Origin: an uncultured Bacteroidales bacterium
Lineage (GTDB): Bacteria; Bacteroidota; Bacteroidia; Bacteroidales; VadinHA17
DNA length: 64,000 nt
Assembly: GCA_963831935.1 (NCBI GenBank)
Contig: CAWHSH010000001.1
Location: 672,378-736,377, forward strand
Reading direction: 5' to 3'
Below, piece by piece: positions 2,317 through 24,969 of this stretch (the stretch's first letter is position 1; each line of letters begins with the position of its first letter). The notes under the pieces were generated by a model. The model was given only the letters and a program-made list of their open reading frames with translations, searched no databases and had not been told where the DNA came from. Position numbers and translations under genes: made by a program.

Positions 2317-2354
2317 AGTAAAAAACAATAAAGAAATTGTAAAACTATGTAAAA
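2317..2354 (-). promoter_or_regulatory. Putative OmpR-type direct-repeat boxes upstream of HK1 (TGTAAAA on + strand)
   Basis: TGTAAAA at 2338 and 2348, AGTAAAA at 2317; resembles the module-4 boxes. Confidence 0.45.
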
Positions 2355-2418
2355 TTAAACTGAGTAATGTTGCTGCGAATTATTACCAGATACCTGTTCA
2401 GACAAATTCTGTTAAAAT

Positions 2419-2480
2419 TTCCCGCTGATCACGCTGATCTGCGCAGATTTTTCTGCGTGAATCTGCGAAATCTGCGGGAA
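2419..2480. repeat. Palindromic nonamer-repeat (ATCTGCG-type) REP-like element, possible terminator of propeller 2
   Basis: TTTCCCGC...GCGGGAA outer inverted repeat with repeated (A)TCTGCG units, 27 bp past the propeller-2 stop. Confidence 0.6.
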
Positions 2481-2506
2481 ATAAAAATACGGTTATTGAG
2501 AACCTT

Positions 2507-4509
2507 TTATTTCGGCAGGAAGTTCTCCATTACCCATACCTCCTGGTTTACCATGACAGCATCAATCGCTACCCGGTGACCGTCAGGATGCATCCGCAGT
2601 TCTCCAGTCAACTGACCAGTAATGTTCAATCCCAGAGATTGTGCTTCTCCGCCTTCAGCTGGGATACGCCATAATTGCCATTGTCTTTCCTTGCCTTTGA
2701 CACCTTTAAAATAGACGATATAGCGGCCATCTGGTGACCATGCAGCTGAACCCCAGAAGGGAATCTCTTTCTCTTTATCGATTCTCACCAATTCTCTGGC
2801 CTCACCCCCTGCAACCGGCATGATGAACAGAACCTGAGATTTATATCCCTCTGTGCCGGTGGCTATGAGCAATCGCTTCCCATCAGGCGACACCAAGCCT
2901 GCATAGAGCCCTTGTTTCTCGCTGACTACTGTCTCTTTGCCAGACCTCAAATCGTGGGCTACAAGGCCAGGCGATCTGACGTAGAAGATTGTATTACCGT
3001 CCGGTGAAAGTTCGAATCGCGTCCTAGACCGTAAGCGGCATCAGAGAAGTCACCTGCCCTGTTTGGACATCAATTCGTATCAGTTCCCTGCCTTTCCCGG
3101 CCTCCGATGCCGTAACCACAATGGCTTTCCCGTCCGGTGTCCAGCGGATACCACTCCATTCGATTTTCCTCTCACCAATACGAATCTCCCGCTCCTCATC
3201 TGTATCCATGGAACGGATTATCACAGCCTGATTTGATTCGTTGTTTAAAACGCCAGCGAGTAAGCTTCCATCGGGAGACCAGTCTGGAGTTCGAATGTTG
3301 CCTCTTTTGAATGCAGTTAGCGGCCGCGAAATTATGTTTCCACCGGTCGGATTATATTCCGCTATTTGAACACCCCAAACGTTGTTGTTGACCGCATAGT
3401 AGAAATCGCCCGAGTGCGTTAAACCCATCGGTAAGAAGCCCCAGTCCTTCTTGATGAACACTGGTTCGCCCTTTGCCTTTCCTCCGTCCACCGCGATCAG
3501 CCACGCATCGGACGATCCAGACCGCTCGCTTGAGAACATGACGTACTTTCCGTCTGGGAGTCCATCCAAGGACACTATGGTTCGATTGGTCCGGAATGAG
3601 CAGTGATTCAATTCCGGTCTGAAGCTCAAACAACGAAATACCTTCTCTGGTTGACCAGGCAATGTACCGTCCGTCGGGTGAGAAATCCCCATCCGATGGT
3701 AATCCTTTTCCTTTCTCCTTCAGCAGCTTTGCCGAACCGTCAGCAACGGTAAGCAGCATCATATCGCTATTTCCATCGGTTTTTACGAATTCCGCAAGCA
3801 GGTGCCTGCTGTCAGGCGACCATGCCACAGGAATGTGGTTAAGCACTCCATTTCCAGTAGTATTCAGAACCCGTGGCTTTGAGCCATCGATCCCTACAAC
3901 ATAAAGGTCGAACGAGCCATTAATTGTCACAGGTGTAGGCGATACTCTTGCTGTCGGGCGAAGGAACAGAGGGTTCAATGTACCTATACGGGTCGTGATT
4001 ATCGGTTATCAGCCGGTTCTGACCGGTAGTGAGATCGCGGATAGCTACATCGCCTGTCTCCCAGTTGGTGAAAGATAAGAAACGGCCATCGGGCGACACC
4101 TTGCCGGTTACATCAGCACCTGACCAGACTCTTTTTACAGCCAGCGTTGAACTGCCCGATCCACCGGTTGATGTTGTCAGCGATGCCAGCTTTGCTTTTG
4201 CCAGGGCTACCATCTCGGTTTGATCGGGATACGTGTTGACCAGGCGCGTGAAATATTCACTGGCTTTTTGTTTGCCCATTTTTTCATTGACCAGTCCCAG
4301 ATGGTACAGGGTTTTAGCGGCCACCGGGCGGTCATCGGGATATTTTTTCAGAATATCCAGGTAGAGCTCAACAGCTTTATCGAGGTTCCCTGTTACTTCT
4401 TCCTCATAAATTGCTGTCGTGAGCAATGACAGATGCCTTTTTGTCCTGGGCGGAAAGAGAATCCGGTCAGGAGTACAAAGGCAATAATTATAAACAGATG
4501 TGTTTTCAT
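2507..4509 (-). CDS. Secreted TPR + TolB-like/PD40 beta-propeller protein (propeller 2), split by several frameshifts
   Basis: ATG 4509 MKTHLFIIIAFVLL signal peptide; TPR AIYEEEVTGNLDKAVELY..YP; repeated WSPDG/SPDGR motifs across ORFs 3920-4540, 3352-3978, 3024-3692, 2507-2950; ends VWVMENFLPK*. Confidence 0.85.
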
Positions 4510-4567
4510 GATACGGATTATTTTTTGATAAAGGTACCACCTGTGTGCGTTAAGCGTATGAACATCC

Positions 4568-4597
4568 GGATAAGTTTGGTTAAGATCAGGTTAAGAT
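4568..4597 (-). promoter_or_regulatory. Direct-repeat boxes upstream of propeller 2 (GGTTAAGAT x2)
   Basis: GGTTAAGAT at 4578 and 4589 (11-bp period), degenerate GGATAAGTT at 4568; overlaps the RR2 stop codon. Confidence 0.6.
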
Positions 4598-5286
4598 TCA
4601 TGCGGATTGAATTTATATCCCGCACCACGTATACCGGTAATCCAGTGCGATTGTTCCATACCATCCTCAATTTTCCTCCGCAGGTTGGCAATATGGGTAT
4701 CCACGGTTCTGGGGGTGACATAAACCTTGTCACCCCAGATGCTGTGAAGAATATCATCACGTTTGATTACATGTCCGGCATGCTGCATCAGCATCTTCAT
4801 CAGTGCAAATTCAATTGTTGTAAGCTGAACCGGCTCATTGTTTTTCGTAACAGTGTATTTTGAAGGATCCAGTTCAAACGGACCAATCTGTATTGTTACT
4901 GTTGCAGTTTGGTGATTCCTTATCTCCGACCGGCGCAGAAGTGCTTTGACACGGGCATGGAGCTCGAATGGACTGAATGGCTTGGTTATATAATCGTCTG
5001 CTCCGAGCTCAAGTCCGAGCACCTTGTCGAATTCCTGGCTCCTGGCAGTCAGCATGATGATTGGTGTTCCGATATTGCGCCGCCGTAATTCCTTGCAGAT
5101 CTCCAGACCGTTCAGTTCCGGCAGCATCAGGTCGAGAATGATGATATCAAGGTTCAGATCCATCGCTTTTTCGAGCCCTTCCGGACCAGTGGCTGCAGTT
5201 TCGACCTGATAACCTTCAAATTTAAAATCATCCTCGAGGGCCATCCGGATGGTCCGGGCATCTTCGATTATTAGTATTTTTTTCAT
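4591..5286 (-). CDS. OmpR-family response regulator RR2
   Basis: Receiver (IIEDA, DLMLP, LTA, TKPF) plus winged helix (RTVDTHIANLRRKIE, IRGAGYKF). Confidence 0.95.
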   Translation of the reverse strand: MKKILIIEDARTIRMALEDDFKFEGYQVETAATGPEGLEKAMDLNLDIIILDLMLPELNGLEICKELRRRNIGTPIIMLTARSQEFDKVLGLELGADDYITKPFSPFELHARVKALLRRSEIRNHQTATVTIQIGPFELDPSKYTVTKNNEPVQLTTIEFALMKMLMQHAGHVIKRDDILHSIWGDKVYVTPRTVDTHIANLRRKIEDGMEQSHWITGIRGAGYKFNPHES

Positions 5287-5331
5287 GAGTGCTTGTTTGT
5301 ATCGTTGTTTTTATTTGTCTATTTGTATGTT

Positions 5332-5450
5332 AGTCCTGAGTCGGTCCCGAATCTTCGATTCGAGGATCCTCGAAAAAGCGAAAGCTTTTTCGGGACAGTC
5401 TTCAGTCGACAGTTGGCAATTTGCAGACTGTGGACTGTGGACTGGAGACT
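5332..5450. repeat. HK-RR junction element copy B (core 5344-5396), inverted relative to copy A
   Basis: GTCCCGAATCTTCGATTCGAGGATCCTCGAAAAAGCGAAAGCTTTTTCGGGAC with GACTGTG heptamer arm abutting the HK2 stop. Confidence 0.9.
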
Positions 5451-7471
5451 TAACACAACGGTATCCTGACAATAAACATGCTCCCTTTTCCCGGTTCACT
5501 TTCTACCCCGACTTCTCCACCATGGGCTTCAACTATTTTTTTCACGATTGTAAGACCGATCCCGCTTCCCCTGATTCCCAACCTCTGCGGTTCATCTCCG
5601 CGATAGAACCGGTCGAATATTTTTTCCTGATCTTTACCTGAAATGCCAATACCGTAATCCTTCACACAAAACAGTAATTCATCATCTTCTTGAGAAAGGA
5701 TAATGTCAATTTGCCTGGATGTCCCGGAAAATTTTATTGCATTGTCAACCAGATTATAGAAAACCTGAAGAATAGCATTCTTGTCAGCCTTGATGACAGG
5801 CACCTGATCAGGACGATCATACCTGATGTCAAAACCGGGTTCCGGAAGCCTTTCCCGGGTTGATTCGAGAAACTTCATGAGGAGTTCATCCAGATCCAGT
5901 TCAGTAAAATCGTATTTCTTGCGATCATCGTCCATTCTCGAAAAATCAAGAATATTATCTATCAGATGACTGAGGTGTTTGCTTTCCTCCAGCATTGCTG
6001 AGTAATATGCCGATTTGCGCTCTTCCGTCTGAACCCGGTTGTGATGCAGCATTTCAGTCATCATTCGGATGGAAGTAAGCGGACTTTTCAGTTCATGCGA
6101 TACATTGGAAATGAATTCCGATTTAAGTTTATTCAGCCTGAGTTCCACGTTAAGGGAATACATTATAAAAACAAGACCGAGTACCATGAGGAGTGCAATC
6201 AGAATAAAAATAAAAAGATATATACCGCTTCCTGCTTTCAATAATGTCGCAATGAATCCGGGTTTATTTTCACTTAAAAGTAATTTCCACTGGGGAAGAT
6301 ATTCCGGAAATGGGAATGAAAGATAACTCGTTTCTTCTTTCAGGACTTTTGAAAAAATAAGCTTCCCGTTCTCATCTTCAACTTTTACATTTATCGAAGA
6401 GCCCGGATCGAGTTCTTTGATCAGCTTTTCTGATATTGATTTCAGATAGATCGGGAAATCAATCACCATGGCTGTTTGAACATCATTGTTTTTAATCCTT
6501 GATAAATACACTGCTGCAAGCTCAGCTGAATTGATCGGAATACAGGATAACTCATTTTTGTCACTGTTAAAATGATTATTACTCCCGGCTGCGATCAGAT
6601 CCGGTCCACTGAGTATCCTGATCAGATAATCAGTGCGGGTTCTTTGAGTATCCAGTTCCCCAACCAGGGAATCAGTCACTCGATCTGTTTCCCGGATAAT
6701 ATCTTTGAAAGATTGGTAAAACATGTCAAACTGATTTTTGTCGTATTCACCCGGAGGGTGAAGCAAGAGCTCCAGATACTGGCGGGAATTGTTCATCATT
6801 TCATCCTTTTCTCCAAGCGATTTATTGATCTTCAGAATTTCCAGACTGGCTAGCAATCCAAGCGGTATTTGTCCGTTTAAAAAGCTTCCACGGTAATTAT
6901 TTCTAATCTCATCATAGAGAGCTTTAGCCCGTACAGGCTGGTTCATTTTGTTATACAACCGGGCGGAAGAAACCAGTGCCTGGATTTTTTCTGCCGGATT
7001 ATTAGTTTTGAGGACAATATTCTGGTAAAATCTGAGCGCATCTGAAAACCTTCGCTCAATATACTCCAGCCGGAGACCTTCTTTCAGGCTGGCGGGTTGT
7101 TTAAACTGCTCAGTTTGGTTGGTCAGTAAGTCTGCAGGTAGATACAAGAGCTGATGGGTTATGAGCTTTTGTAAACCGCCGGAATCTTTGACAATAAGTG
7201 CAAGCAAAGCCGGATCATACTGTCTGGCGCCATAAAGCATTGAATCAGTGGTCTGTTCATTCATGAATTTTACAAAACCTGAATCAATTGCAGTAAAAAA
7301 ATCCTGGCTGTACATTTCAAGCTTCCTGCGGTTTTCCTTTTCGCGCAGAGCCTGATCGTTACGTATGCCCCGGTAAGCCATGTATCCCAGGAGAATACCA
7401 GGCAGCACAACAGCAAGTGCATAATACAGGATTATCTTTTGCCTTCGTGATCCGGGATTAGCTGTTTTCAT
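5450..7471 (-). CDS. Sensor histidine kinase HK2 with periplasmic TPR-like domain
   Basis: Intact ORF; likely start ATG 7471 (MKTANP); H-box SHELKSPL, NLVDNAIKF, DYGIGI, GSGIGL. Confidence 0.92.
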   Translation of the reverse strand: MKTANPGSRRQKIILYYALAVVLPGILLGYMAYRGIRNDQALREKENRRKLEMYSQDFFTAIDSGFVKFMNEQTTDSMLYGARQYDPALLALIVKDSGGLQKLITHQLLYLPADLLTNQTEQFKQPASLKEGLRLEYIERRFSDALRFYQNIVLKTNNPAEKIQALVSSARLYNKMNQPVRAKALYDEIRNNYRGSFLNGQIPLGLLASLEILKINKSLGEKDEMMNNSRQYLELLLHPPGEYDKNQFDMFYQSFKDIIRETDRVTDSLVGELDTQRTRTDYLIRILSGPDLIAAGSNNHFNSDKNELSCIPINSAELAAVYLSRIKNNDVQTAMVIDFPIYLKSISEKLIKELDPGSSINVKVEDENGKLIFSKVLKEETSYLSFPFPEYLPQWKLLLSENKPGFIATLLKAGSGIYLFIFILIALLMVLGLVFIMYSLNVELRLNKLKSEFISNVSHELKSPLTSIRMMTEMLHHNRVQTEERKSAYYSAMLEESKHLSHLIDNILDFSRMDDDRKKYDFTELDLDELLMKFLESTRERLPEPGFDIRYDRPDQVPVIKADKNAILQVFYNLVDNAIKFSGTSRQIDIILSQEDDELLFCVKDYGIGISGKDQEKIFDRFYRGDEPQRLGIRGSGIGLTIVKKIVEAHGGEVGVESEPGKGSMFIVRIPLC

Positions 7472-7523
7472 CAGCGGTGCGTACCTAATTATAATCAAAT
7501 ATCAGAAAAATCAGGCAGTTACA

Positions 7524-7556
7524 TGTTAAGAATTTGAAGAAATTCTGTTAAGAATT
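7524..7556 (-). promoter_or_regulatory. Direct-repeat boxes upstream of HK2
   Basis: TGTTAAGAATT at 7524 and 7546 with degenerate TGAAGAAATTC at 7535 (11-bp period); same GTTAAGA core as at 4578-4597. Confidence 0.6.
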
Positions 7557-7642
7557 GAACAAGGTTGCTGAACCGGATAGAAAAAATAGTCTTAATAATC
7601 TTTTACCTGTTTTATCCGCCGGTATATTCAATTTGATACTGC

Positions 7643-7870: not shown

Positions 7871-7958
7871 CGGCCGGACGCTAACAGTAATTGCTTCAAA
7901 AAGACTATGCAACTACAAATATTGTGAGAAATCTATTGTCCCTTCCTATATTACTGTT

Positions 7959-8020
7959 AATTACCGTCGGTTTTAACCGACGGAAGATGCAAATCCACAT
8001 CTATTTGGGACTTTAGTCCC
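7959..8020. repeat. REP hairpin plus GGGACTTTAGTCCC palindrome overlapping the transposase stop
   Basis: AATTACCGTCGGTTTTAACCGACGG 7959-7983; GGGACTTTAGTCCC 8007-8020. Confidence 0.8.
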
Positions 8021-8447
8021 TCATTCTTTCCAATTTGTATTCCTTAATTAGGTTATTTAATTCATCCTGAAAAGATACTTTCTGGTGATGCTGATCCTGA
8101 TTCCGTATATATTGTCTTAAATTTTCTATTTGTATCATCCCGATAGATACTGCATAATAATCATCCTGCCATTCAAGCTTTAATCTGGTTAATTTGTTTT
8201 TATTAATCCAGTAAGAACTCTCTCCTTTTATTTTTTGCATTATATCAGAAATATTTTGGTTGCCACCCAAGGATATAAGAGCATGCAGATGTTCATGATA
8301 ACCGTTAATGTGATCAATATAAATACCTTTTAATTTTGCATTTTCACGAATGTGTGAGATTACTGTATCTCTTATCTGATCCCTCAAATAAGGAATTCTG
8401 TCTTTTGTGGTCCACACACAGTGGACCCAAATTCTTATATATGACAT
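8013..8447 (-). mobile_element. tnpA: IS200/IS605-family Y1 (HUH) transposase, REP-associated (RAYT-like)
   Basis: N-terminal HCVWTTKDR, HUH motif EHLHAL, KGESS, WQDDYY, catalytic YIRNQ..HH; likely ATG 8447; flanked by REP hairpins; no tnpB. Confidence 0.88.
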
Positions 8448-8547
8448 ATTATTGGAAATAACAGCGTTTGACAAATATAAAGATAGGTAATTTAAACTTT
8501 ACTTGAAAGTTCTGTCGATAAAAATTGGATTCTTCTCAACCGACAAA

Positions 8548-8841: not shown

Positions 8842-8946
8842 TTATTTCGGCAGGAAGTTTTCGAAAAGCCAGTACTCAAAACTGCTTTTAAGGCGCTTCC
8901 CAAAGACTATACTTTTGCCGTCGGGAGACCATCGTGGAAAACTTTC
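8842..8946 (-). pseudogene. 3' stub of a PD40 propeller gene (about 34 codons)
   Basis: Reverse complement reads ESFPRWSPDGKSIVFGKRLKSSFEYWLFENFLPK*, i.e. a WSPDGK blade plus the family C-terminal ENFLPK motif, with no 5' part. Confidence 0.8.
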
Positions 8947-8950
8947 AATC

Positions 8951-8970
8951 GTGTTAAGATTTGGTCAAGT
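8951..8970 (-). promoter_or_regulatory. Operator-like 20-mer at the RR3 stop
   Basis: GTGTTAAGATTTGGTCAAGT, identical to 14177-14196. Confidence 0.65.
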
Positions 8971-9654
8971 CTGATCAGTCTTAAATTTATATCCGATACT
9001 TCGTACACCGATTATAAATTTTGGATTTTCCGGATCGTCTTCAATTTTCTTTCTCAGATTCGCAATATGCGTGTCTATTGTGCGGGGGTAAACATAAACG
9101 CTGTCGCCCCATACATTATCAAGTATTGAATCACGACTGACCACCTGGTCTTTATGTTTAATGAGAAAATGAAGCAGAGTAAACTCGAGGGCCGTAAGGT
9201 TAATCGGCTTTCCATTCTTTTTCGCTTCGTACTTTCTGAAATCAATTTCCACGTCACCGAAATGATCAAGGCCGATTCCCTGTTGATTTTGCTTCATCCT
9301 TCTGATAATGGCATTCACACGGGCAATAAGCTCACGGGGACTGAAGGGTTTTGTAACGTAATCATCAGCTCCTATCTCCAGCCCGAGGACTTTATCGACT
9401 TCCTGACTTTTAGCTGTTAAAATAAGAATGGGAGTCGTAATTCCGGTTTGACGTAGTTGCTTACAGACTTCAAATCCATTCATCTTTGGCAGCATAATAT
9501 CAAGAATGATAAGGTCAAAGGATTGATCCCTGGCCATGGAAAATCCTTTTTGTCCGTCTGTTGCACTTGAAACCTGATATCCCTCAATTCTGAGGTTATC
9601 TTCCAGTCCCATCAGGATCCTCTCCTCATCTTCAATGATTAGTATTCTTTCCAT
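8965..9654 (-). CDS. OmpR-family response regulator RR3
   Basis: Receiver plus winged helix (RTIDTHIANLRKKIE, VRSIGYKF). Confidence 0.95.
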   Translation of the reverse strand: MERILIIEDEERILMGLEDNLRIEGYQVSSATDGQKGFSMARDQSFDLIILDIMLPKMNGFEVCKQLRQTGITTPILILTAKSQEVDKVLGLEIGADDYVTKPFSPRELIARVNAIIRRMKQNQQGIGLDHFGDVEIDFRKYEAKKNGKPINLTALEFTLLHFLIKHKDQVVSRDSILDNVWGDSVYVYPRTIDTHIANLRKKIEDDPENPKFIIGVRSIGYKFKTDQT

Positions 9655-9683
9655 TAGTAAAGGTTTGTGCAGTTATTGATTTT

Positions 9684-9827
9684 CAGTCTCCAGTCTACAG
9701 TCTTCAGTCGGCAGTCGGTCCCGAATCTTCGATTCGAGGATCCTCGAAAAAGCGCAAACTTTTTCGGGACAGTCTCCAGTCTTTGGTCGGCCGTCAATTG
9801 CAGACTGAGGACTGCAGACTGCGGACT
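9684..9827. repeat. HK-RR junction element copy C (core 9718-9770), same orientation as B
   Basis: CAGTC heptamer arm, 53-bp core, GACTG arm ending at the HK3 stop. Confidence 0.9.
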
Positions 9828-11964
9828 TTAGATTCCAGATAATGGAAGCCTTATTGAGAATGTACTGCCATGTCCCGGCTCGCTTTCAACACTGACATTA
9901 CCATGATGGGCTTCCACAATTTGTTTAACCAAAGTCAATCCAAGTCCGCTACCTTTGATCGTTCTCGTTAACTCATCACCTCCGCGGTAAAAACGCTCAA
10001 AAATTTTATCAATTTCTTCCTTTTTGATGCCAATACCGAAGTCTTTTACTGAAATATTCAGGTATTTCCCTTCCACAAACGCCCTGACGATTATATTTCT
10101 GGCCTCACCGGAATATTTGATGGCATTATCTATCAGATTAGTAATTGCCTGGGTAATAGATTCTCTATCTGCTTTAATTGCTGGCAATGGCTTTTCGGTT
10201 TCTAGCTGAATAACAAAATCTTTATGGCGCATCTGGTCCTGAATGACTGATACTATCTGATGCAACAATGAACCTGTATCCACTGCCTGAAAATCAAATT
10301 TTTTCCTGCCCTCCTCTATTTTTGCAAAATCCAATATGTTATCAATGAGTAAAGTAAGCCTTTCACTTTGTTCTACAAGAACATCGTAATATTCCTGCCT
10401 GCGATCTTCAGAAGGAACCCGGCCTGACTGAAGCATCTCTGCAAGCTGCCGAATCGAGGATAAAGGACTTTTAAACTCGTGGGAAATGGTGGAGACAAAA
10501 TCAGATTTCATCTTCGAAAGTTCAAGTTCATGAGCAATTGTCCGGTTGGTCAGGACCAATCCAAATAAGAGTATCCCTGCAAGCAGAATAAACGCTAAGA
10601 AATAAATCCCTCTTCTTGAAAACAAAAAGGTTTCAAAAAGATCCGAATCCTTTTGATACAGCTCAACAAACCATGGCGGAAATCCTCCTTCAAAATTTGT
10701 TCTGACAGTTACAGAACCTGAAGGGGAGTTTTCAGACTTCAAAATGGCTTTTTCATCCCTTCCTTTTACGATCCATGAGATGTTTCTTCTGAATTTACAT
10801 TACTTTGTCAATACCTGGAATAGAATGCTGTCTCTCAGATAATCGGCGTTAAGCAGAAGTCCCCTGATTTCATTTCCGCGGTTTTCATTTCTGGTATATT
10901 GCCCCAACAATGAAACAAGATACGTATGTTCTCCGACCTCCAGTATAAATCGCCTGGCTGAGCTTTGGGATTCTTTTATGTCAGGAGCAATTTTGGCCTT
11001 CAGATCTGCTCCTGAATTCTCCTGAAAGGCAAGTAATCGCTCAGTGTTTTTTCTTTGGTTTTGTTCTTCTGCTTTCAACACAGTAAAATCGTTCTGGTAT
11101 GATTTTATTGGTTCAGTTAATCGTGCCTGTGAAAAGATATTGTTAATCGATTCATTCAAATGCTGCAAAAAAAAGTCATACTGAGCTCGTTCCAGTATCC
11201 ATCTCCTGTTTATAAGATCTTTGTACAAATCAGAGATTGTTTTTACAGCGGATAAAGTATCACCGGTTGTCATTAATAAAGAAGCTGATTTCAGATTGTG
11301 CAGCCAATCCAAGTGGAATCCCGCCTGTGGTTCGGACGTTGTTGTAATCCCTGGCAATTACCTCGTATGTTTTTAATGCATCCTGAAAGAGGGCTGATTT
11401 TTTTTGAACTCTGGCAATAGAGCTCAGCAGTTCTCCTTTAAACTGAGGATCGGACGTTTGTTTAAAATCCTTCTGGTAGCTGGCCAGAGCCTTAGGGTAT
11501 TTTTTCAGTAGAAATTCCAGTTGTTGTCCGTCCGGGACTTTTCTGGCCGCCGCGGAAGTTCGTGACGGAGAAGATAATGATTGAATACTGCCATCAGGCA
11601 GAAATAAAAGTTTTGCTAAGGGGAAGAGGATTTTTTCATATTTATCCGCGATAAATACTTCCTCCACTAATGGATTTTGTTTTTTTAAGCTGTCAATGGA
11701 ACGGATCAATCCTGGCTGAAAGATATCCTGATTTTTGCTAAACATTAGTAAAAAAGTCTGTTCAACTTTAAGAATATTTTCTTCAACCGACCTGGTAATC
11801 AGTTCCAAAATTTTACGATGGTCATTCAGATTTTCTTTTTCCAGCAGTGCCTGATCATTCTGAATCCCCCGGAAGGCCAGGTAGCCCAATAGCAGGCAGG
11901 GAATCCCGATACCGGTAAGAAAGAGAAGCGGTATCCTTTTACTCTTATGGAATGATATTCCCAC
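9828..11964 (-). CDS. Sensor histidine kinase HK3 with TPR-like periplasmic domain, frameshifted
   Basis: ORFs 11260-11964 ([14 protein letters not shown]), 10800-11357, 9828-10742 ([23 protein letters not shown]). Confidence 0.85.
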
Positions 11965-14083: not shown

Positions 14084-14127
14084 GTTCAATCCCTCCTTTT
14101 TTTAATGAACTTTTTATTTTACAGGAA

Positions 14128-14196
14128 CAAACATATTATTACTATGATTCTGATGCATGAAGCTTCTGTGTATATTGTGTTAAGATTTGGTCAAGT
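14128..14196 (-). promoter_or_regulatory. Promoter of propeller 3': Bacteroidetes -7 box plus operator 20-mer
   Basis: TATGTTTG (TAnnTTTG) on - strand at 14128-14135; GTGTTAAGATTTGGTCAAGT at 14177-14196. Confidence 0.6.
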
Positions 14197-14213: not shown

Positions 14214-14430
14214 AAATATTACGGTGCTCTGCACCTATGTTTACATTATTCAATTGCATTTCTACAAATATTTTGCAGCCCTGCTGCTTTGTATCAGGTC
14301 CAAATGATGCAGGCACAAAACTTATTGCAGATAAATTCTTGTGATTTGTAAAAGGTGCAGAGCACCATGATATTTGTAGCATATAAATGTTTGTAATGGA
14401 ATGTATAGGTGCAGCGCACCTAAATATTTA
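14214..14430. repeat. Cluster of four REP-like units (GGTGC-N3-GCACC hairpin with CTACAAATATT foot) in inverted arrangement
   Basis: GGTGCTCTGCACC 14223-14235, CTACAAATATTTTGCAGCCCTGCTGC about 14262-14287, AGGTGCAGAGCACC..ATATTTGTAG 14353-14379, AGGTGCAGCGCACCT 14407-14421. Confidence 0.7.
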
Positions 14431-14433
14431 TAT

Positions 14434-14466
14434 AAAAAAAGGGCACAATAATAAATCTTTGTGCCC
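14434..14466 (-). terminator. Rho-independent terminator of propeller 4
   Basis: GGGCACA...TGTGCCC stem with A7 at 14434-14440 (U-tract on - strand). Confidence 0.7.
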
Positions 14467-14493
14467 CCTGAAAATGTTTTTATTCTGAATTTT

Positions 14494-17400
14494 TTATTTC
14501 GGTAAAAAGTTTTTCATAACCCAGGCCTCTGTGTCACCGCGCCACGTATAATAAACAATCTGTTGACCGTCAGGGTGTATACGGAGGTGACGCAGCAAAC
14601 CGTCTATTTTTAAATCGAGCCGTTGAGGTTCACCTCCTTCTGCAGATACGCGCCACAATTGCCAACTGGTTTGTCCCAGATCCGTATTTTTCGTTTTCGT
14701 GAGCATTACAGCATAAATCAAATACCGGCCGTCAGGTGTCCAGGCGATTACTCTGGAGGCCCAACCCATGCCACCGACATTGACAAGTTGTTTTGATGGT
14801 CCGCCGGACACCGGCATGATGTAAATTCCTGTGGAGCCTGCTTTATCTCCGGCACCAATGAATGCCAGCTGCTTACCATCAGGAGAAAGGGCAATCGGAA
14901 CCAGTGGTGTGTTCCCCGGATGGGCTAACTCCTTTTCCTGACCAGTCTGTAAGTCAAAGGAATAATGCCTGACGTCATATGCAGCCTCACCATCAGGAAT
15001 GCCCGACCCTGCAACTGCAGAGTAGAAGATCATGTTCCCATCGGGTGATATTTCCAGGCCGGGCGCACCGACAAAGTGGCGCGCCACTATGAGCCTGGCT
15101 TCTCCAGTATTAGAATCTACACGGAAAAGACCTTCTTTTTTGGTTTTATCTGTTCCATTGACGAAAAGAGAACGTCCGTCGGGCGCCCAGCGCAAGCTGA
15201 AACCTATCTCAAGAGCTGGTTTGAGCAACTGCTCCTTTCCTGTTTCGAGTGAGCGTATCACTATAGTATTACCCTGCTCTTCCGCTGAACCCCGGTTCGA
15301 TATGTAAGCCATGAATTTGCCATCACGTGAGAAGTCCGGACGCCAGTTGGAGCCCAGGTAACTTCCGGCAGTTTCTACTGGTTGGGAGAGTAGTTTGCCG
15401 GAATCGAAATCCAATTTTGCTGTAAAAATGTTGTGACCTCCTACTGATTCATGAAAGTAGAAGTCACCTGATTGGGTGAATCCAATGCCTTCAATCTCTC
15501 CCATATTCTTGCGTACCAATGCCGGTTCTCCCTGAATCTTTCCGCCAGATACAGTAACCAGCCATGCATCACGGGTGCCACTGCGGTCACTGGTGAAAAG
15601 CAAATGTTTTCCATCAGGCGTCCAACCGAGCAGGCCGTCATCTGAAGGGTGTTTGACCACAGGGGAAGTGTGTTTCGTAGCGATCTCATAAAGGTACACA
15701 TCACGTTGTTGGACATCTTTGATTTGTGGGGTGTCGTATGCGATGTATTTGCCGTCAGGAGAGAAGCACATCGCACCTGAAATCTGAAATGCCAGATCCC
15801 GGACTGAACTATCGGCCATTGTGATTATTGCAGGTCGCCAGGTCTGGTCTTTATTCATGAGCTTGACCAGAATGTATTTTCCATTTGAGGACCAACTAAC
15901 AGGCCATGAATCATCGCCTTTATAAATGACTCTTGTTGAGAGCCGTCTGTACTTATGATCCGCAAGTTCAGTCTGGTTTTTCGACCAGATTCGCCAGGTA
16001 TAGGCAACCTGTTTACTGTCGGGTGAGAACAATGAGTATCCTGCATAATCGTTCGATTCCGCCCATGAACCTTTATTTGTGAGCCATCGGTTATCGCCGG
16101 TAACCACATTGTGAATAGCTAAGTCCCCTGTATTCCAATCAGAGTAGGAGATGTAGCGTCCGTCCGGTGAAAGGCGGGCATATGGGGTATTGAGAACATC
16201 ATTTTCAAGCTTTCTCAATGTCAATTGGTTACTTGTTTCGGCTTTTTCCTTTGGTAAAAAGTTTTCCATCACCCAGATTTCGGATTTGGGCTTGCCTGCA
16301 GTGAAAGCTATATGCCTCCCGTCCGGATGGACGGATAGATCGTGCATATTCTCCGCCACGAGCTCCAGTTTCCTGGGTTCACCGCTCTGAAGAGGTATCT
16401 GCCACAGCTCGGTTTTAGAGCCACCTGGGGTGGTCGATCTGACGAAGAGTAAGCTCCGTCCATCAGAAGCCCATACTATTGTGCCAAACGCGATGGGAAT
16501 CAGCGATTTATCCTCATCCTCAAGCAGTAGCTCACGTGCTTCTCCTCCCGTAGATGGTATGACCTTGATGATCCTTGAATCCGATTCAGAAACTGAAAAT
16601 GCCAATTGCTCCCCATCACGCGATAGAGTAAGACCTGTCGTATAATAGGAGGAATTTGAAAAGGTGAGATTATAAATTTCCTTCCACTGGCCAGTCTCAA
16701 GATCCTGCACCACTATAGGATACTTTCCTGTGTCGGAAACAGTCCGAAAGGAGAAAATCGTCTTACTATCACGCGCCCAGGCTGCCGGCCAACCGAGGTG
16801 AGGTGTCATAAGATACTTGTATTCGCCGGTTTGAATGTTGATTCGGAACGTTCCAATCTCACCGGTGGGATCTTGTGCGGAAGCAAGCAAGGAGCGGCCA
16901 TCAGGGGACCAACGAACCCAGGCTAATTTGTTGAGCTTGGAGAAGAGTTCATGTACATCTCCGCTTTCGGTGGAACGGACACAAATAGCCCTGGTTCCCC
17001 ACGGATTGGGAGAGCGTTGTGAAAGATAAAGCAATTGCTGTCCATCTGCCGACCAGTTGGGACAGAAATTGGACCCCGCAAAACGTTGGGTAGCCAGACT
17101 CGGTGCGGAAATAAGTTTGCCTGTCACAAGATCAAGCTCGGCGATATACACATCCTTAATCTCCTTCAGGATGCCGGAGTAGTATAAACCGTTTCTGGTA
17201 AAACCCATAGGTATGAAGTCCGGTCCCAGGTCAGGTTTGAGCAGCTCTGGAGTTCCCTGGGACTGCCCCTCAATAACCTTAACCCACCAGAGGCCAGCAG
17301 TCCCGGTACGATCGCTGCGGAACAGGATTCCTTTGCCATCTGGTGTCCAGTCTAAAACAATATCATCAGCAGGGTCCTGAATCAGCTGAGTTTCACTCCC

Positions 17401-18333
17401 CCCGTTAAGATTATGGACAAAGATGTCCTTCTCCCTTGATTCTCGGCTCTGCTGCAAGGTGTAAGCAATGTAGTGGCCATCGCGAGAGAACCGGGAGGGA
17501 CCGGGTGTAAGCTTATCGAAGTCCTTCAGCACTTGCACGGAACCGTCCTGCACGGAAACCAGGACCATCTGACATGTCTTGTCCTCAAGTGAAAGAATGA
17601 TCAGAATGCTTTTTCCGTCCGGGGACCAATCCTCGAGATCTATCCAAGTAACCCTGGCATCGCTGTAAAGAACTCTTGGCTCAGTCCCATCCAATCCAAT
17701 AATACGCAAGTCAATTTGTCCATTATCATTATGGTACAAGGTGTAGGCCAAAAGCTTGCCGTCAGGCGACCATCTGGAGTCATAGGCACCATGCTCGATA
17801 TCCTCCTTAGTGAGAAAGCGCTTTTTTTCGGTGCCGATTTCATAAATGGTGAGTACGAGAGAACCATCCTCCGCATATGAGAGATATCTGCCGTCCGGCG
17901 AAACCGTTCCCAGCACACCCATACCTGACAATTCTTTTACCCTTCTGATACTTAATTCTTTATCCTCTCTTGCTGCAACGGCTTCGGCTTTCAGGAGAAG
18001 ACTCAGTTTTTCATTTGCCAGTTTAACTGATTCAGTTTGCTCAGGATAACTGCTAACCACTTTCTGGTAAGCTTTTTGTGCTTCTTTTACACCTAATTTT
18101 TCATAGCAGAGCCCAATATACAGTTGAGATTTCGCAGCATATTCCCTCTCCTTCGGATATTTTTTAATAATATCGTTAAAGAGAGCAATAGCTCCATTCA
18201 GGTCTCCTTTTGTTTCCATTGTAAACTTTGCCTTTTCGAAGAGGATCTTGTACTCAGGCGAAGTCTGAAATCCAATTGCTGTCATTAAGACAGCAATAAA
18301 GGCGACTAAAATAATAGTTTTTTTATGATTCAT
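14494..18333 (-). CDS. Secreted TPR + tandem-duplicated PD40 beta-propeller protein (propeller 4, 1279 aa)
   Basis: Intact ORF behind AGGAGG; signal peptide, TPR (YIGLCYEKLG), many WSPDG/WTPDG motifs; WVMENFLPK internally and WVMKNFLPK* at the end. Confidence 0.92.
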   Translation of the reverse strand: MNHKKTIILVAFIAVLMTAIGFQTSPEYKILFEKAKFTMETKGDLNGAIALFNDIIKKYPKEREYAAKSQLYIGLCYEKLGVKEAQKAYQKVVSSYPEQTESVKLANEKLSLLLKAEAVAAREDKELSIRRVKELSGMGVLGTVSPDGRYLSYAEDGSLVLTIYEIGTEKKRFLTKEDIEHGAYDSRWSPDGKLLAYTLYHNDNGQIDLRIIGLDGTEPRVLYSDARVTWIDLEDWSPDGKSILIILSLEDKTCQMVLVSVQDGSVQVLKDFDKLTPGPSRFSRDGHYIAYTLQQSRESREKDIFVHNLNGGSETQLIQDPADDIVLDWTPDGKGILFRSDRTGTAGLWWVKVIEGQSQGTPELLKPDLGPDFIPMGFTRNGLYYSGILKEIKDVYIAELDLVTGKLISAPSLATQRFAGSNFCPNWSADGQQLLYLSQRSPNPWGTRAICVRSTESGDVHELFSKLNKLAWVRWSPDGRSLLASAQDPTGEIGTFRINIQTGEYKYLMTPHLGWPAAWARDSKTIFSFRTVSDTGKYPIVVQDLETGQWKEIYNLTFSNSSYYTTGLTLSRDGEQLAFSVSESDSRIIKVIPSTGGEARELLLEDEDKSLIPIAFGTIVWASDGRSLLFVRSTTPGGSKTELWQIPLQSGEPRKLELVAENMHDLSVHPDGRHIAFTAGKPKSEIWVMENFLPKEKAETSNQLTLRKLENDVLNTPYARLSPDGRYISYSDWNTGDLAIHNVVTGDNRWLTNKGSWAESNDYAGYSLFSPDSKQVAYTWRIWSKNQTELADHKYRRLSTRVIYKGDDSWPVSWSSNGKYILVKLMNKDQTWRPAIITMADSSVRDLAFQISGAMCFSPDGKYIAYDTPQIKDVQQRDVYLYEIATKHTSPVVKHPSDDGLLGWTPDGKHLLFTSDRSGTRDAWLVTVSGGKIQGEPALVRKNMGEIEGIGFTQSGDFYFHESVGGHNIFTAKLDFDSGKLLSQPVETAGSYLGSNWRPDFSRDGKFMAYISNRGSAEEQGNTIVIRSLETGKEQLLKPALEIGFSLRWAPDGRSLFVNGTDKTKKEGLFRVDSNTGEARLIVARHFVGAPGLEISPDGNMIFYSAVAGSGIPDGEAAYDVRHYSFDLQTGQEKELAHPGNTPLVPIALSPDGKQLAFIGAGDKAGSTGIYIMPVSGGPSKQLVNVGGMGWASRVIAWTPDGRYLIYAVMLTKTKNTDLGQTSWQLWRVSAEGGEPQRLDLKIDGLLRHLRIHPDGQQIVYYTWRGDTEAWVMKNFLPK

Positions 18334-18348: not shown

Positions 18349-18376
18349 TTGTTAGTGAAATTTAATTCACTAACAA
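18349..18376. promoter_or_regulatory. Perfect 11-bp inverted repeat immediately upstream of the propeller-4 RBS
   Basis: TTGTTAGTGAA-ATTTAA-TTCACTAACAA. Confidence 0.55.
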
Positions 18377-18393
18377 TGTTGCCACTTTTATAT

Positions 18394-18440
18394 TGTCAAC
18401 GTTGTCAAAAAAAAGTAACCAATTGTAAAAGATTGTCGTT
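18394..18440 (-). promoter_or_regulatory. Direct-repeat boxes upstream of propeller 4 (TGTCAA/TGTAAA)
   Basis: TGTCAAC 18394, TGTCAAA 18403, AGTAACC 18414, TGTAAAA 18424, TGTCGTT 18434. Confidence 0.6.
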
Positions 18441-19125
18441 ACCCTGATAAACCGGTAACCTCCTCCATAAACTGAAAGGATATACCGGGGATGAGACGGA
18501 TCTTCCTCAATTTTTTTCCTCAGTTTAAGAATATGATTGTCAATGGTCCGGGTAGTGGGATAACTTTCATATCCCCAGATTTTGTCAAGCAGATCATTTC
18601 TTGATACAACTTCTCCCCTGTGGACGACGAAATATTTTAAAATATCCGTTTCAAGAGAAGTGAGTTCCTGTTCTTTCCCTTTCCGTCTGATTTTAAATCG
18701 GGCAAAATCAATTTCAATATCACCAAAGGAATATATTTCAGGAACTGGTTTCACCCTCTCTTTCAGCATGTCTTAGCCTTGCTTTTATCCGGGCTAAAAG
18801 TTCCCTGATGCTGAAGGGCTTTGGTCATATAATCGTCAGCTCCGATTTCAAGTCCCACCACCTTGTCAATTTCTCCTCCTTTGGCTGTGAGCATGATAAT
18901 CGGTATATTTATATTTTTTTGCCGTAGATTCCGGCAGACCTCAAGACCATCCATCTCAGGCAGCATAATATCAAGAATTATGAGGTCCGGTGCTTCTTCG
19001 ACAGCTTTGCGAAGACCTTCCGTTCCATTAACAGCCCAGTCAACATCGAATCCTTCGTCAGACAGGTTGAGTTTTAATCCTTTAACCAGGTCTGGTTCAT
19101 CTTCTATTATCAGAATCTTCTTCAT
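18439..19125 (-). CDS. OmpR-family response regulator RR4, frameshifted
   Basis: Receiver in 18763-19125, winged helix (RTIDNHILKLRKKIE) in 18362-18769; removing one base gives the normal GYRFIG* end at 18439-18441. Confidence 0.85.
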
Positions 19126-19156
19126 TTGACTGTTTATTTTATTTAATATTATTATC

Positions 19157-19274
19157 CTCAGTCCTCAGTCCTCAGTCTTCAGTCGTCAAGCGACTGTCCC
19201 GAAAAAGCTTGAGCTTTTTCGAGGATACTCGAATCGAAGATTCGGGACCGACTGGAGACTGTGGACTGCAGACT
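19157..19274. repeat. HK-RR junction element copy D (core 19196-19248)
   Basis: (CAGTCCT)3 arm, 53-bp core, GACTG arm ending at the HK4 stop. Confidence 0.9.
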
Positions 19275-21403
19275 TTATGTACTATCCAACGGGAGCCTGA
19301 CAATGAACCTGCTGCCTTTACCGACTTCGCTTTCAACCTCTATTGTACCTCCATGAGCTTCAATAATATGTTTAACCAGGGTAAGACCTAATCCGCTTCC
19401 CCTGGCTTCGGAGGCAATTTTATTCTCCGACTGATAAAATCTCTGGAAGATTTTTGGGATCTCTTTTTGTGAAATGCCAATACCTTTATCTGCGACCTGA
19501 AGAACAGCATTCCCGTTATCCCTGAATAATTTAACGGTCACTTCCTTTTCCTTCGGAGAAAATTTCATGGCATTGCTCAATAAATTAATAAGAACGCTGG
19601 CAATTGCTTCTCCGTCAAAATTCATTTCCGGAAGGTCACGGGCAATATCGCTATGGATGACAAATCCTTTTTTCTCCAGATGATAACGATATGATTCCAG
19701 AGTATCCAGGATAACATCCTGTAAATATCCTTTTTTAAAGTCAAATTCCTTTCTGCCCATTTCAATCCTTGAAAAATCAAGAACGTTGTTGATCAGATGT
19801 GACAGACGTTCACTTTCCTTCGTGATTATTTCATAGCATTCTTTCTTCTCTTTGTTTGTGAGATTTTCTTTACGCTGGAGTGTCTCCCCATAAAGACGAA
19901 TAAGTGTCAGCGGGGTCTTTAGTTCGTGGGAAATATTATTGACAAATTCTGTTTTTAAGCGGGTGGTTTCAGATTCGCGGGAAATGTCACGTGCAATCAG
20001 AACAGCGCCCAAAAGCATTAAAGCCACAATAATAGTCAGAAGGATTCCGTAGAAAAAAATCTCACGGTGTGCAGTCTTCTCAAGTGCTTTTATTTCAGGG
20101 TGAGAAACAAGAAGTTTCCATGGAAGAGGAAACATCACGAAAATTTAAAACCAGAGATTCCTCTGATGTTAATACATCTTTTCCTGATATTATATTTTGA
20201 TCTTTTTCATCAACGATTTTAAAATCCAGTCCGGAATCTTTTGTAATTTCTTCAAGAATTTTTGGTATTATTTGGTTTCTTAAAAGATTGAGATCCCAGC
20301 AGAAGCCTCCATAAAATGTTTGTCCCGATTGAAAATCAGGCAAGATCGTATAAGAAACCAGAAGAAAGATTATTTTCAAAGTCATCAAGAAATCGTTCCG
20401 GCAACATCTTGTCTTTTGCCTGGTACAGTGATAATTTTTCCTTTATTTCCGGAATAGCATTTCTCTTTAATAAATCTATAAAAAGCAGGGTTTGTCTGTA
20501 GGGAGACTGTTGTTTTTGTATATCAGTAAAAGATTTTTGAATTTCAGGAAATTTTCCTTCAATGAGTTTACTGTTTAGAATTGATTCAATTTCTGATACA
20601 TAGAAATCATAAACAGGCTGGTTAATAGGCCAGGTCCCGTTCCGTAATTTTTTCGTAAAGATTAAGTAAGATTTCAAGGGAATTTTCTTCCTCCTTCTTT
20701 TCCCGGGCAATTTCGTATAATTGAAACATAGCCATAATACCATATGGGTGCCCTGCTTTGTTTTGGAATTGTCCGTAGTTTTCGGACAAGTTCATGTATA
20801 TACTTTCTCAGCTTCATCATATTTCTCGGATGATAAAAGGCAGCGTCCCAAACCTTCAAAAGCAAGCGCACGGTATTGTTCTGAATGAGTGTATGAAATA
20901 CACTTCTTATATAATTCAGCAGCCCGTGTATAACTCTTTTTGAGAGAATTCAAAAAATTCGGCTCGTCGGAAGAATTGTGTAAACCTGTCTGTTTTGTAT
21001 TTCCTTTTCCCATTGAATCCCAAATGCATTTTCACTTCCTGTTTCAGGGATAACTATTTTAAATTCAGCATCAAGTAAAAAAAGTTGTCCTGCGAAATCT
21101 TCTGAATATATAGGGTAGTCCGAGGTCAGACTGGTCATCCTTTTTTGATTGCACCAGACTTATAAAATTTTCTGAACTTAGAACTTTTTGTTCCTGCTCA
21201 AGAAGTGCTCCTTCGACGGTTTTAAGGGCAGCTTCTCCTGAAATCCAGAGATTTGATTCAAGAAGTTTTTTAATAGCTTCGCGTCTTTTGGGGAAGGTAC
21301 TTAAACTTAAATATGCCGCAATCAATGAAGGAATAAAAATTGCGAGAAGGAAAATGACGATGATTTTCCTGTGGGTAAATATCCGGTGGGTAAATAGTTT
21401 CAT
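19275..21403 (-). CDS. Sensor histidine kinase HK4 with TPR-like periplasmic domain, multiply frameshifted
   Basis: ORF pieces 21071-21403 (TM), 20792-21013 (TPR, EGLGRCLL), 20336-20743, 20095-20388, 19275-20138 (SHELKTPL, NLLSNAMKF, GSGLGL). Confidence 0.83.
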
Positions 21404-21431
21404 TTCCGGCTAAGGATTGTGATATATAATA

Positions 21432-21519
21432 CCAGTTGCTGATTCCTGGTTCCTGGTTTGTTTGGTACTTATTATTAAACAATTACTTAGCAACAAGCAA
21501 CTAGCGACCAGCAACCTGG
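21432..21519. repeat. Heptamer-repeat palindrome ((CCTGGTT)n ... (AGCAACN)n) in the HK4 leader
   Basis: CCAGTTGCT...CCTGGTTCCTGGTT and AGCAACAAGCAACTAGCGACCAGCAACCTGG. Confidence 0.6.
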
Positions 21520-21571
21520 ATTAAAAACAATATCTTCATAAATTAAAATATGCAAAACTTAACCATCGGAA

Positions 21572-21609
21572 TGTCAAAGAAATGTAAAAAATTGTCAATG
21601 AATGTCAAT
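21572..21609 (-). promoter_or_regulatory. Direct-repeat boxes upstream of HK4
   Basis: TGTCAAA 21572, TGTAAAA 21583, TGTCAAT 21593, TGTCAAT 21603 (11/10/10 spacing); same motif as at 18394-18440. Confidence 0.65.
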
Positions 21610-21769
21610 TGAGAATGGTTGTATTTTATGTCCGCGACTCACAGTAATCCGGTAACTAATTTCATGGGTATAAATCACTACTAAAATACCAATTTAACCG
21701 CTGAATGTCAAGTAAATAAAAATTAAAATTCTTTTTCCACATAAAATTGACTTCAACTTAAACAAGCCG

Positions 21770-21777
21770 TAACTTTG
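21770..21777 (+). promoter_or_regulatory. Bacteroidetes -7 promoter box of HK5
   Basis: TAACTTTG matches TAnnTTTG, 19 bp before ATG 21796. Confidence 0.6.
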
Positions 21778-21795
21778 GCAACAAGATCAGGGAAA

Positions 21796-24027: not shown

Positions 24028-24045
24028 AGACTGCTGACTGAAGAC
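23928..24045. repeat. HK-RR junction element copy E (core 23954-24006)
   Basis: 72/73 nt identical (manual alignment) to copy D in inverted orientation. Confidence 0.9.
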
Positions 24046-24064
24046 AATAAAATCAAATTCCAAA

Positions 24065-24763
24065 ATGAAACATCAAATGAAAAAGATCCTGATCGTTGAA
24101 GATAATCCCGGCATTCAAATGAGCCTTATGGATGAATTTGAAGCCGAAGGATTTAAGATTTTCACTACCGGAAATGGAAACGATGGACTAAAGATGGTAA
24201 AAGATCATACTCCTGATCTCATCATCCTTGATATTATGCTGCCAGGATTGGATGGTTATGAGGTGTGCAAGAAATTAAGGATAGATGGGAATACCACTCC
24301 AATAATAATGTTGACTGTTAAAGATAAAGAAATCGATAAAGTTCTGGGGCTGGAACTCGGAGCCGATGATTACGTAACCAAGCCATTCAGTGTCCGCGAA
24401 TTATCAGCCAGGGTAAAAACAATCTTCCGCAGAATTGGTGAGTATTCTGGTGAATCAAACTCAATCAATATCGGCGAAACATCCCTGGATTTCAGGAAAT
24501 ATGAAGCAACAAGAAGAGGAGTTAAAATAGATTTTACTCCATTGGAATATCAAATACTGCAATTTTTTGTCAAAAACAGAGGTAAGGTAATTTCAAGGAC
24601 TGAATTATTGGAGAATGTCTGGGGAGGACAAAATACAATAGTCTCTTTACGAACAATCGACACCCATATTGCCAGTATAAGGAAGAAATTGGAGGATGAT
24701 GTTTCGAAACAGGAATTTATAATCAATATCAGGGGTGTGGGTTATAAACTTAAAGTTCAATGA
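24065..24763 (+). CDS. OmpR-family response regulator RR5
   Basis: Receiver plus winged helix (RTIDTHIASIRKKLE, IRGVGYKL); alternative start 24077. Confidence 0.95.
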   Translation: MKHQMKKILIVEDNPGIQMSLMDEFEAEGFKIFTTGNGNDGLKMVKDHTPDLIILDIMLPGLDGYEVCKKLRIDGNTTPIIMLTVKDKEIDKVLGLELGADDYVTKPFSVRELSARVKTIFRRIGEYSGESNSINIGETSLDFRKYEATRRGVKIDFTPLEYQILQFFVKNRGKVISRTELLENVWGGQNTIVSLRTIDTHIASIRKKLEDDVSKQEFIINIRGVGYKLKVQ

Positions 24764-24771
24764 CAGTTTTT

Positions 24772-24881
24772 GAAGATCCTCGTGCAAGCTACGAGGAATC
24801 TTCGATCCCAATTTGGTATTTTTTATTTTAATGCTCGCTAACCCCCCAGTAAGCAGCGGGGAATGCGCTCGCTGGGATTCA
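24772..24881. repeat. Solo REP/MITE-like hairpin element
   Basis: GAAGATCCTCGT-GCAAGCT-ACGAGGAATCTTC hairpin and degenerate CCCC..AAGCAGCGGGGAATGCGCTCGCT unit. Confidence 0.5.
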
Positions 24882-24913
24882 ATGAAATGGATTTAACGGA
24901 ACGATGTATAAAT

Positions 24914-24969
24914 TCCACACTTTCTCCACACTTCCTGAACACTCAGGCGTATAGTTCCGGGTAACTTTG
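24914..24969 (+). promoter_or_regulatory. Promoter of propeller 5: three 11-bp-phased boxes plus -7 box
   Basis: TCCACACTT 24914 and 24925, TGAACACTC 24936; TAACTTTG 24962-24969. Confidence 0.65.

Follow-up and report, generated by a model that had tools for sequence, protein, structure and literature searches.

Helically phased repeat arrays as probable operators of paralogous kinase-regulator-propeller modules in an uncultured Bacteroidales bacterium

Response regulators of the OmpR/PhoB family bind head-to-tail DNA repeats with a spacing of one helical turn, as a rule at the -35 region of the promoter, and often regulate their own genes. In the Pho box of Escherichia coli, 7-bp direct repeats and 4-bp spacers give an 11-bp period at -35, and phoBR is autoregulated; the PmrA/BasR box reads YTTAAK-N5-YTTAAK, and the F and C half-sites of OmpR have the forms TTTAC.. 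and GTTACA. Here we analysed a window of 64,000 nucleotides (C1:672378-736377) in the 4.36 Mb assembly, of 20 contigs, of an uncultured Bacteroidales bacterium. The minus strand of this window carries a row of paralogous modules and the plus strand a fifth one, each module being made up of a sensor histidine kinase (HK), an OmpR/PhoB-type response regulator (RR) and a secreted TPR/PD40 double-propeller protein. Arrays of short, helically phased boxes precede most of the kinase and propeller genes, and we read them as probable operators of the module regulators. Comparison with the whole genome by tblastn showed that the island runs on upstream of the window and comprises eight modules (A, B, C, 1, 2, 3, 4 and 5) from C1:635600 to about 700000; modules 1 and B are partly or entirely outside the window.

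The regulators are standard OmpR/PhoB-family proteins with an N-terminal receiver and a C-terminal winged-helix Trans_reg_C domain. PF00072 (Response_reg) and PF00486 exceed the Pfam gathering scores in RR2 (4591..5286, minus strand), RR3 (8965..9654, minus strand) and RR5 (24065..24763, plus strand), the LDxMLP aspartate, the conserved T/A-K and the KPF motif are present throughout the alignment of all eight regulators, and the best PDB matches are RegX3, MtrA, BaeR, PhoP and KdpE. As a PhoB equivalog RR2 falls short, with 216 bits where TIGR02154 asks for 296 and 192 where the Bacteroidetes PhoB model asks for 270, and because all regulator NCBIfam scores are below cut-off these proteins are not orthologues of any named regulator. 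With the PhoB-PhoR system the modules share the regulator fold family, two to five head-to-tail repeats at 10-11 bp upstream of a putative -10/-7 element, and the presence of one array before the kinase-regulator genes and another before a dedicated target gene. They differ from it in the box sequences, in the order of the genes (kinase before regulator in most cassettes), in the sensor domain, which is large, TPR-like and extracytoplasmic, and in the target, which is a secreted TPR/PD40 propeller instead of phosphate genes. The half-sites of modules 2, 3 and B (CTTAAC, CTTAAT and CTTGAT at 11 bp) recall the PmrA box and the boxes of modules 1, 4 and C (TTTTACA, GGTTAC, TTGACA) recall the OmpR half-sites, although the gene context is unrelated to either system and the regulators are not orthologues. 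The propellers resemble TolB and other periplasmic PD40 propellers in having PD40 repeats behind a signal peptide, together with a YbgF-like TPR stretch, but they are not TolB: they reach 98 bits against a TolB cut-off of 343, carry two propellers per unit and a C-terminal ..WVMENFLPK, and have a kinase and a regulator as partners.

Box arrays in the island

The initial annotation of the window had described GTTAAGA-type boxes with an 11-bp period before HK2 and propeller 2, TGT(C/A)AA-type boxes before HK4, propeller 4 and HK1, and a further set of 11-bp repeats before propeller 5; all of these boxes were found in place, and the recognition helices also read as quoted there. In module 2, the spacer from the RR2 stop to propeller 2 (4548..4597, minus strand) holds ATCTTAACC at 4589-4597 and again at 4578-4586, 11 bp apart, followed in the same period by ACTTATCC (4568-4575) and then by GCTTAACG (4548-4555). 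Before HK2 (7524..7554, minus strand) TTCTTAACA occurs twice, 22 bp apart (7546-7554 and 7524-7532), with the weak box TTCTTCAA (7534-7541) in the middle. The module 4 array before HK4 (21571..21608, minus strand) is composed of TTGACAT, TTGACAA, TTTTACAT and TTGACAT at 10-11 bp, and that before propeller 4 (18393..18437, minus strand) of GACAATC, TTTTACAA, GGTTACTT, TTGACAA and TTGACAA. Module 5 carries TCCACACTT, TCCACACTT and TGAACACTC with a period of 11 bp before propeller 5 (24914..24944, plus strand). The genome scan with these motifs that the initial annotation had proposed as a check bore out how particular they are to the island: the propeller 2 array is the sole exact CTTAAC tandem at 10-11 bp spacing in the genome, the HK4 array is the only 4-copy TTNACA chain, and TTNACA chains of at least three copies are confined to the island.

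In module 1, TTTTACA occurs twice, 10 bp apart, before HK1 (2338..2354, minus strand), and four TTTTACA-type boxes at 11 bp lie outside the window between RR1 and propeller 1. The HK1 boxes, which had been grouped with those of module 4, therefore belong to the class of module 1, as they recur before propeller 1. Module B shows CTTGAT-type boxes at 11 bp in both of its promoters. The prediction derived from the window, namely one box type for both promoters of a module, thus held outside it. It is valid for modules 1, 2, 4 and B, is weak at HK3 and HK5, and is not valid for module A, where TCATCAT/TCCTTGACA stands before the propeller but TGTTAAA before the kinase. In module 3, the two-box sequence CTTGACC-aaat-CTTAACA, within an identical 19-mer (CTTGACCAAATCTTAACAC), occurs at 8951..8969 (minus strand), directly after the RR3 stop, as a stub followed by only a C-terminal remnant of a propeller, and again at 14177..14195 (minus strand), upstream of propeller 3', where it likely marks the start of a propeller3'-HK3-RR3 unit.

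Regulatory regions were defined by gene position alone, as 120 nt upstream of every kinase and as the spacers between regulator and propeller, and the spacing of near-identical 6-mer pairs in the resulting 15 regions of the island was compared with 279 kb of other intergenic DNA from the same genome. Pairs peaked at 11 bp (27 against 6.8 expected) and at 10 bp (15 against 7.5), with a harmonic at 21 bp (16 against 7.8), while other spacings were near background; overall the 10, 11 and 21-22 bp spacings exceeded the genome's other intergenic DNA by 2- to 4-fold. The pattern TGTMAA-N4-TGTMAA was seen three times against 0.06 expected. The heptamer GTTAAGA is not enriched in the window (9 copies against 8.7 expected), and 6 of these 9 copies sit in regulatory spots of modules 2 and 3; because single heptamers are not enriched, the signal is in position and phasing. 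One could still hold that the repeats are chance, low complexity of AT-rich intergenic DNA or functionless slippage duplications, a view that gains something from the flat GTTAAGA count and from a strict chain test (7-mers with at most one mismatch, in at least three copies at 10-11 bp), in which about 190 loci were found genome-wide and 6 in the island. The peak at 10-11 bp with its harmonics is nonetheless absent from the control intergenic DNA and from shuffles, and the boxes are conserved across genomes and phyla, so that chance is extremely improbable and, as far as sequence evidence reaches, refuted. The repeats are thus confirmed as real.

Conservation of the boxes and their relation to the recognition helix

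Among 40 related genomes the island is carried by G003 and G022 only, in which HK2 is 85% and 57% identical, respectively. Aligning the RR2-propeller 2 spacer of G000, G003 and G022 showed 28 of 32 box columns to be invariant as compared with 19 of the 32 other columns, and when the 8 invariant columns (of 8) of the -7 element TACCTTTA are added, boxes and element together amount to 36 of 40 against the same 19 of 32. The HK2 array is conserved in both relatives, the HK1 array is kept in G003 with identical boxes, and the HK4 array is kept in G022. The counterpart before propeller 3' in G003 reads CTTAACG-aaat-CTTAACA.

We scanned one genome per species with the propeller alignment and obtained 80 loci from Aminicenantes, Gemmatimonadota, Planctomycetota, Bacteroidota, Glassbacteria and others. 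In about 60 of the 80 the genes directly before the propeller encode a kinase of the same family and an OmpR-type regulator, and given this spread over many phyla the kinase-regulator-propeller cassette is an old and widespread unit. Regulator-to-propeller spacers measure 80-190 bp, and 57 of them, after removal of close relatives and with shuffles as control, contained 88 near-repeat pairs at 11 bp against about 21.5 and 51 at 10 bp against about 20, with harmonics at 21-22 and 31-33 bp. Since the phasing is present in 17 of 19 helix classes, the signal is not borne by one clade. Kinase upstream regions of 28 loci gave 26 and 31 pairs against 11.

The initial annotation had proposed that the boxes track the regulator recognition helix and that each module has a code of its own. 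To relate box to helix we used a three-residue key, made up of the position that follows the conserved Asp and the two that precede (L/I)R. Spacers of regulators with the same key had a 6-mer Jaccard similarity of 0.092 as compared with 0.023 for different keys, a value that none of 2000 label permutations reached. Helices ending in Lys (NLK, TAK, AAK, VGK) pair with TT(T/G)AC boxes; T..A(N/H) helices, of the form DTHxA(N/H)LR, with CTTAAC/CTTGAT; N..A(L/S) (DNHxAL) and N..VT helices with (A/C)TGACA, DNHxAL pairing with ATGACA; T..LN helices with TGGAYA; and S..A(N/H) (DSHIANIR), K..SL and T..GH helices with T(T/C)CA(T/C). The tracking of the regulator's DNA-binding type thus stands across phyla, but a private code for each module was overstated: TTxACA is common to modules 1, 4 and C and CTTAAC/CTTGAT to modules 2, 3 and B, and in a shared 7-mer matrix the 7-mers common to regulatory regions pair by class and not by module. 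Likewise the possible crosstalk is wider than that proposed between modules 2 and 3, and takes in modules 1/4/C and 2/3/B.

Window modules 1, 2, 4 and 5 fit the consensus of their own class. In the class of RR4 the array before propeller 4 aligns to the core GACAATCTTTTACAxTxxTTTACTTTTxTTTGACAAC, which is retained by 11 loci from several phyla; their regulators share 62-67% identity with the RR4 of the window, and the array of about 40 nt is almost invariant while the neighbouring DNA is unalignable. The HK4 array fits, box for box and in the orientation of HK4, the class consensus TTTGACATTC-xTTxACAATT-TTTTACATTTx-TTTGACATTT, and assignment of this array (21572-21609), which lies in a divergent spacer, to HK5 was considered and rejected on the basis of its orientation and its sequence fit to the kinase-upstream consensus of the HK4 class. 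The HK1-type motif TTTTACATA-TTTTACAAT also occurs upstream of the kinase in two distant loci (L062 and L050), and module 5 fits xTTTCAx..TxTxCAxAxTTCCTxAACACAT, the consensus of 20 class loci. Within-class regulator identity is generally 55-67% with about 40 nt of array nearly invariant, and conservation of non-coding heptamers at such divergence appears to need selection. It is the depth of the divergence, and nothing else in the co-variation, that argues for selection.

Could some other factor, such as another transcription factor, a sigma factor or a nucleoid protein, bind the phased repeats, with the co-variation being mere co-inheritance? Linked DNA and genes are indeed inherited together, and the last box of several classes resembles the -35 hexamer TTGACA. 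Nevertheless, heptamers repeated head to tail at 10-11 bp are what characterises the OmpR/PhoB family, both promoters of a module carry the same type of box, this type goes with the helix residues across phyla that use different sigma factors and promoters, and TTGACA at about 20 nt from the -10-like element is too distant for a normal -35. We consider such a factor quite improbable, and binding by the OmpR/PhoB-type regulator of the module fits these data better. As for how the helix would read the boxes, RR1 (DTHIAKLR) and RR2 (DTHIANLR) are one residue apart in the 8-residue helix core and their boxes differ; this contrast fits a link between Lys and TTxAC, but equally allows determinants outside the helix, the loop before it being FPNT in RR1 and YVTP in RR2. 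The box code is so far a class-level correlation and not a residue-to-base rule.

Promoter geometry and the proposed circuit

The Bacteroidota -7 consensus is TAnnTTTG, and the arrays end about 12-30 bp upstream of a conserved -7/-10-like element. For propeller 2 this is TACCTTTA (4529..4536, minus strand), a TAnnTTTG-like sequence of the Bacteroidota type with a putative promoter role; TACCTTT takes the corresponding position in modules 1 and B and in five distant loci (L042, L062, L039, L050 and L082). Propeller 3' has the -7-like TATGTTTG at 14128-14135 (minus strand). The likely -7 element of propeller 5, TAACTTTG (24962..24969, plus strand), recurs as an octamer before HK5 (21770-21777) and before propeller A. 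Upstream of propeller 4, GCAACATTGT lies at 18373-18382 (minus strand), and a conserved -10-like region GCAACATTGTTAGTG with a leader hairpin TTAGTGAA..TTCACTAA (18352..18382, minus strand) precedes the Shine-Dalgarno site, the functions of both being putative. The hairpin (18352-18373) recurs as GTTAGTG..CACTAAC in several RR4-class loci of other phyla and may be a translational or stability element. Across loci, TACCTTT or TAACTTTG, in agreement with the -7 consensus of that phylum, follows the array in Bacteroidota and a -10-like TACATT or TATATT in other phyla. A sigma-70 promoter scan gave 9 matches against 10.5 expected and is uninformative in a Bacteroidota genome, and an Rfam scan of positions 1-27000 returned no known RNA family.

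Taking these data with the phasing and the co-variation, we estimate a probability of about 0.75 that the boxes are arrays bound by the OmpR/PhoB-type regulator of the same module, serving autoregulation and a promoter for the propeller. In this model each array would consist of two to five head-to-tail heptamers, one per helical turn of 10-11 bp, and would cover the -35 region as the Pho box does. The phosphorylated regulator would bind as tandem dimers and recruit RNA polymerase. An array before the kinase gene would lead to positive autoregulation of the kinase-regulator operon, and one in the regulator-propeller spacer would give the propeller its own regulator-dependent promoter, besides read-through, with transcription predicted to start just after the conserved element. 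At the DNA level the class-specific boxes would insulate most of the eight paralogues from each other, while members of one class (modules 1/4/C or modules 2/3/B) may still overlap.

We infer activation and not repression from the position of the arrays, which lie upstream of the conserved element, none over or after it, and are hence read as activator sites. An alternative is that the module regulator does bind the boxes but represses or fine-tunes read-through, with the propeller transcribed from the kinase promoter only. It draws on the short spacers and on the gene strand from RR2 to propeller 2, which contains no terminator-like site, a result that is also in line with the favoured model, but it leaves unexplained why a -7/-10-like element (TACCTTT, TAACTTTG or GCTACATTGT) follows each array at a fixed distance, why the arrays sit upstream of it in the activator geometry of PhoB-type promoters, and why in modules 3 and C the array precedes a propeller that is the first gene of its unit. 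We regard this alternative as unlikely, though less so than binding by an unrelated factor, and favour regulator-dependent activation.

Several observations weigh against the operator model. The strict chain test finds few sites (191 loci genome-wide, 6 in the island) and recovered just 2 of the sites described here; because individual boxes are degenerate this test is weak, and the spacing spectra were used in its place. The expectation of an array before each gene holds for most of them, but a convincing own-type array was not found before HK3, HK5 and HK_A. The low-confidence candidates before HK5 (21735..21763, plus strand; TTCCACA, ATTGACT and CTTAAAC at 11 bp) do not fit the kinase-upstream consensus of the class, CTTGACAGAATCTTCACACTTCCTTAACG. 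The two TTGACAA copies before propeller 4, which the initial annotation had stressed, are not kept in G022, which keeps TTTTACAA and (G/T)TTACTT there. Co-variation of regulator and DNA is partly expected from common descent alone. Finally, genes with frame shifts mean that some modules may be inactive. The core of the model, namely operator arrays, autoregulation, a regulator-driven propeller promoter and boxes that follow regulator type, nonetheless has strong comparative support, whereas the initial interpretation as a whole is partly supported.

Module genes, neighbouring elements and the cassette family

Frame changes split propeller 2 (2507-4540), HK3 (9828-11964), propeller 3' (12078-14089), RR4 (18362-19125), HK4 (19275-21403) and propeller 5 (25001-26100); in RR4 (18362..19125, minus strand) the stop codon is also lost relative to G022. 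Many island genes are frame-split in G022 as they are in this assembly and intact in G003, which has unbroken propeller 2, HK3 and propeller 3' orthologues; either the long-read assembly is in error here or the genes are decaying. The true start of the HK2 sensor kinase (5450..7471, minus strand) is the ATG at 7471, as judged by comparison with G022. Propeller 4 (14494..18333, minus strand) has a signal peptide, a TPR region and two double PD40 propeller units. The sequence ..ELWVMENFLPK is found at or near the last residue of many propellers in this genome, in G003 and G022 and in some distant loci (for example, at 14494-14520, 12078-12104 and 2507-2533 of the window), also marks the junction between double propellers, and may serve in sorting or docking.

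Module 3 appears to be a unit in the order array, propeller 3', HK3 and RR3, an order shared with G003. After RR3, a propeller C-terminal stub (8842-8970, ..FENFLPK*) is all that remains, and after it comes an IS200-like Y1 transposase (8013-8474) with CCGTCGGTTAAAACCGACGG hairpins on either side. Upstream of propeller 3', at about 14250-14470 (minus strand), there are four REP-like hairpins of the form GGTGC(N)CTGCACC, present in G003 too. Every kinase-regulator spacer of this genome contains a palindromic element in which CAGTCNG ... GACTGAA 7-mer runs surround the hairpin CCCGAAAAAGC..GCTTTTTCGGG (5287-5449, 9655-9827, 19126-19274 and 24028-24064 in the window; also C1:637715-637934, 645118-645270, 668589-668755 and 672410-672611). 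G003 lacks the element, its HK2 stop overlapping the RR2 start, and in all eight paralogues the element thus looks like an insert, mobile or converted, at one and the same joint. A related 7-mer-run element (GTTGCTGGTCGCTAGTTGC ... CCAGGAACCAGGAATCAGCAAC) lies at about 21425-21520, between the HK4 array and the HK4 start codon; G022 is without it, and its array is about 100 nt nearer to the gene.

Multiple cassettes per genome are common in Aminicenantes and other metagenome-assembled genomes (loci L038-L117), with two or three modules each on L045, L057, L076 and L069, and expansion into paralogues is hence a trait of the family. For OmpR/PhoB regulators, operators of direct repeats and autoregulation are textbook knowledge, and the mechanism itself would be no surprise to the specialist. 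While the mechanism is of a known kind, the setting appears undescribed: literature searches on the kinase-regulator-propeller cassette found no paper, and both the cassette family and its class-specific operator set appear to be new to the literature.

What we describe is a compact three-gene cassette without a described function, present as eight paralogues in one Bacteroidales genome and in many uncultured phyla. The probable operator adjoins each regulator, often twice, which gives testable regulator-operator pairs for dozens of regulators with no need to know their signals, and opens a way to study what determines specificity, and what insulates paralogues, in the largest family of response regulators. 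A first hint at how the cassette works is that the propeller would be its regulated output. More tentatively, and in our view less probably than not, the cassettes may form an undescribed envelope-signalling family of at least six phyla, whose sole dedicated output is their own secreted propeller, maybe feeding back on the TPR-like sensor of the kinase, and in which each of about 20 regulator classes has its cognate operator twice next door. If this were true, the family would be a natural data set for the residue-to-base rules of OmpR/PhoB winged helices (for example, Lys at helix position +5 with TT(T/G)AC, Thr..Ala-Asn/His with CTTAAC, and Asn..Ala-Leu with ATGACA), and the same data would reveal how paralogues are insulated from one another within one cell.

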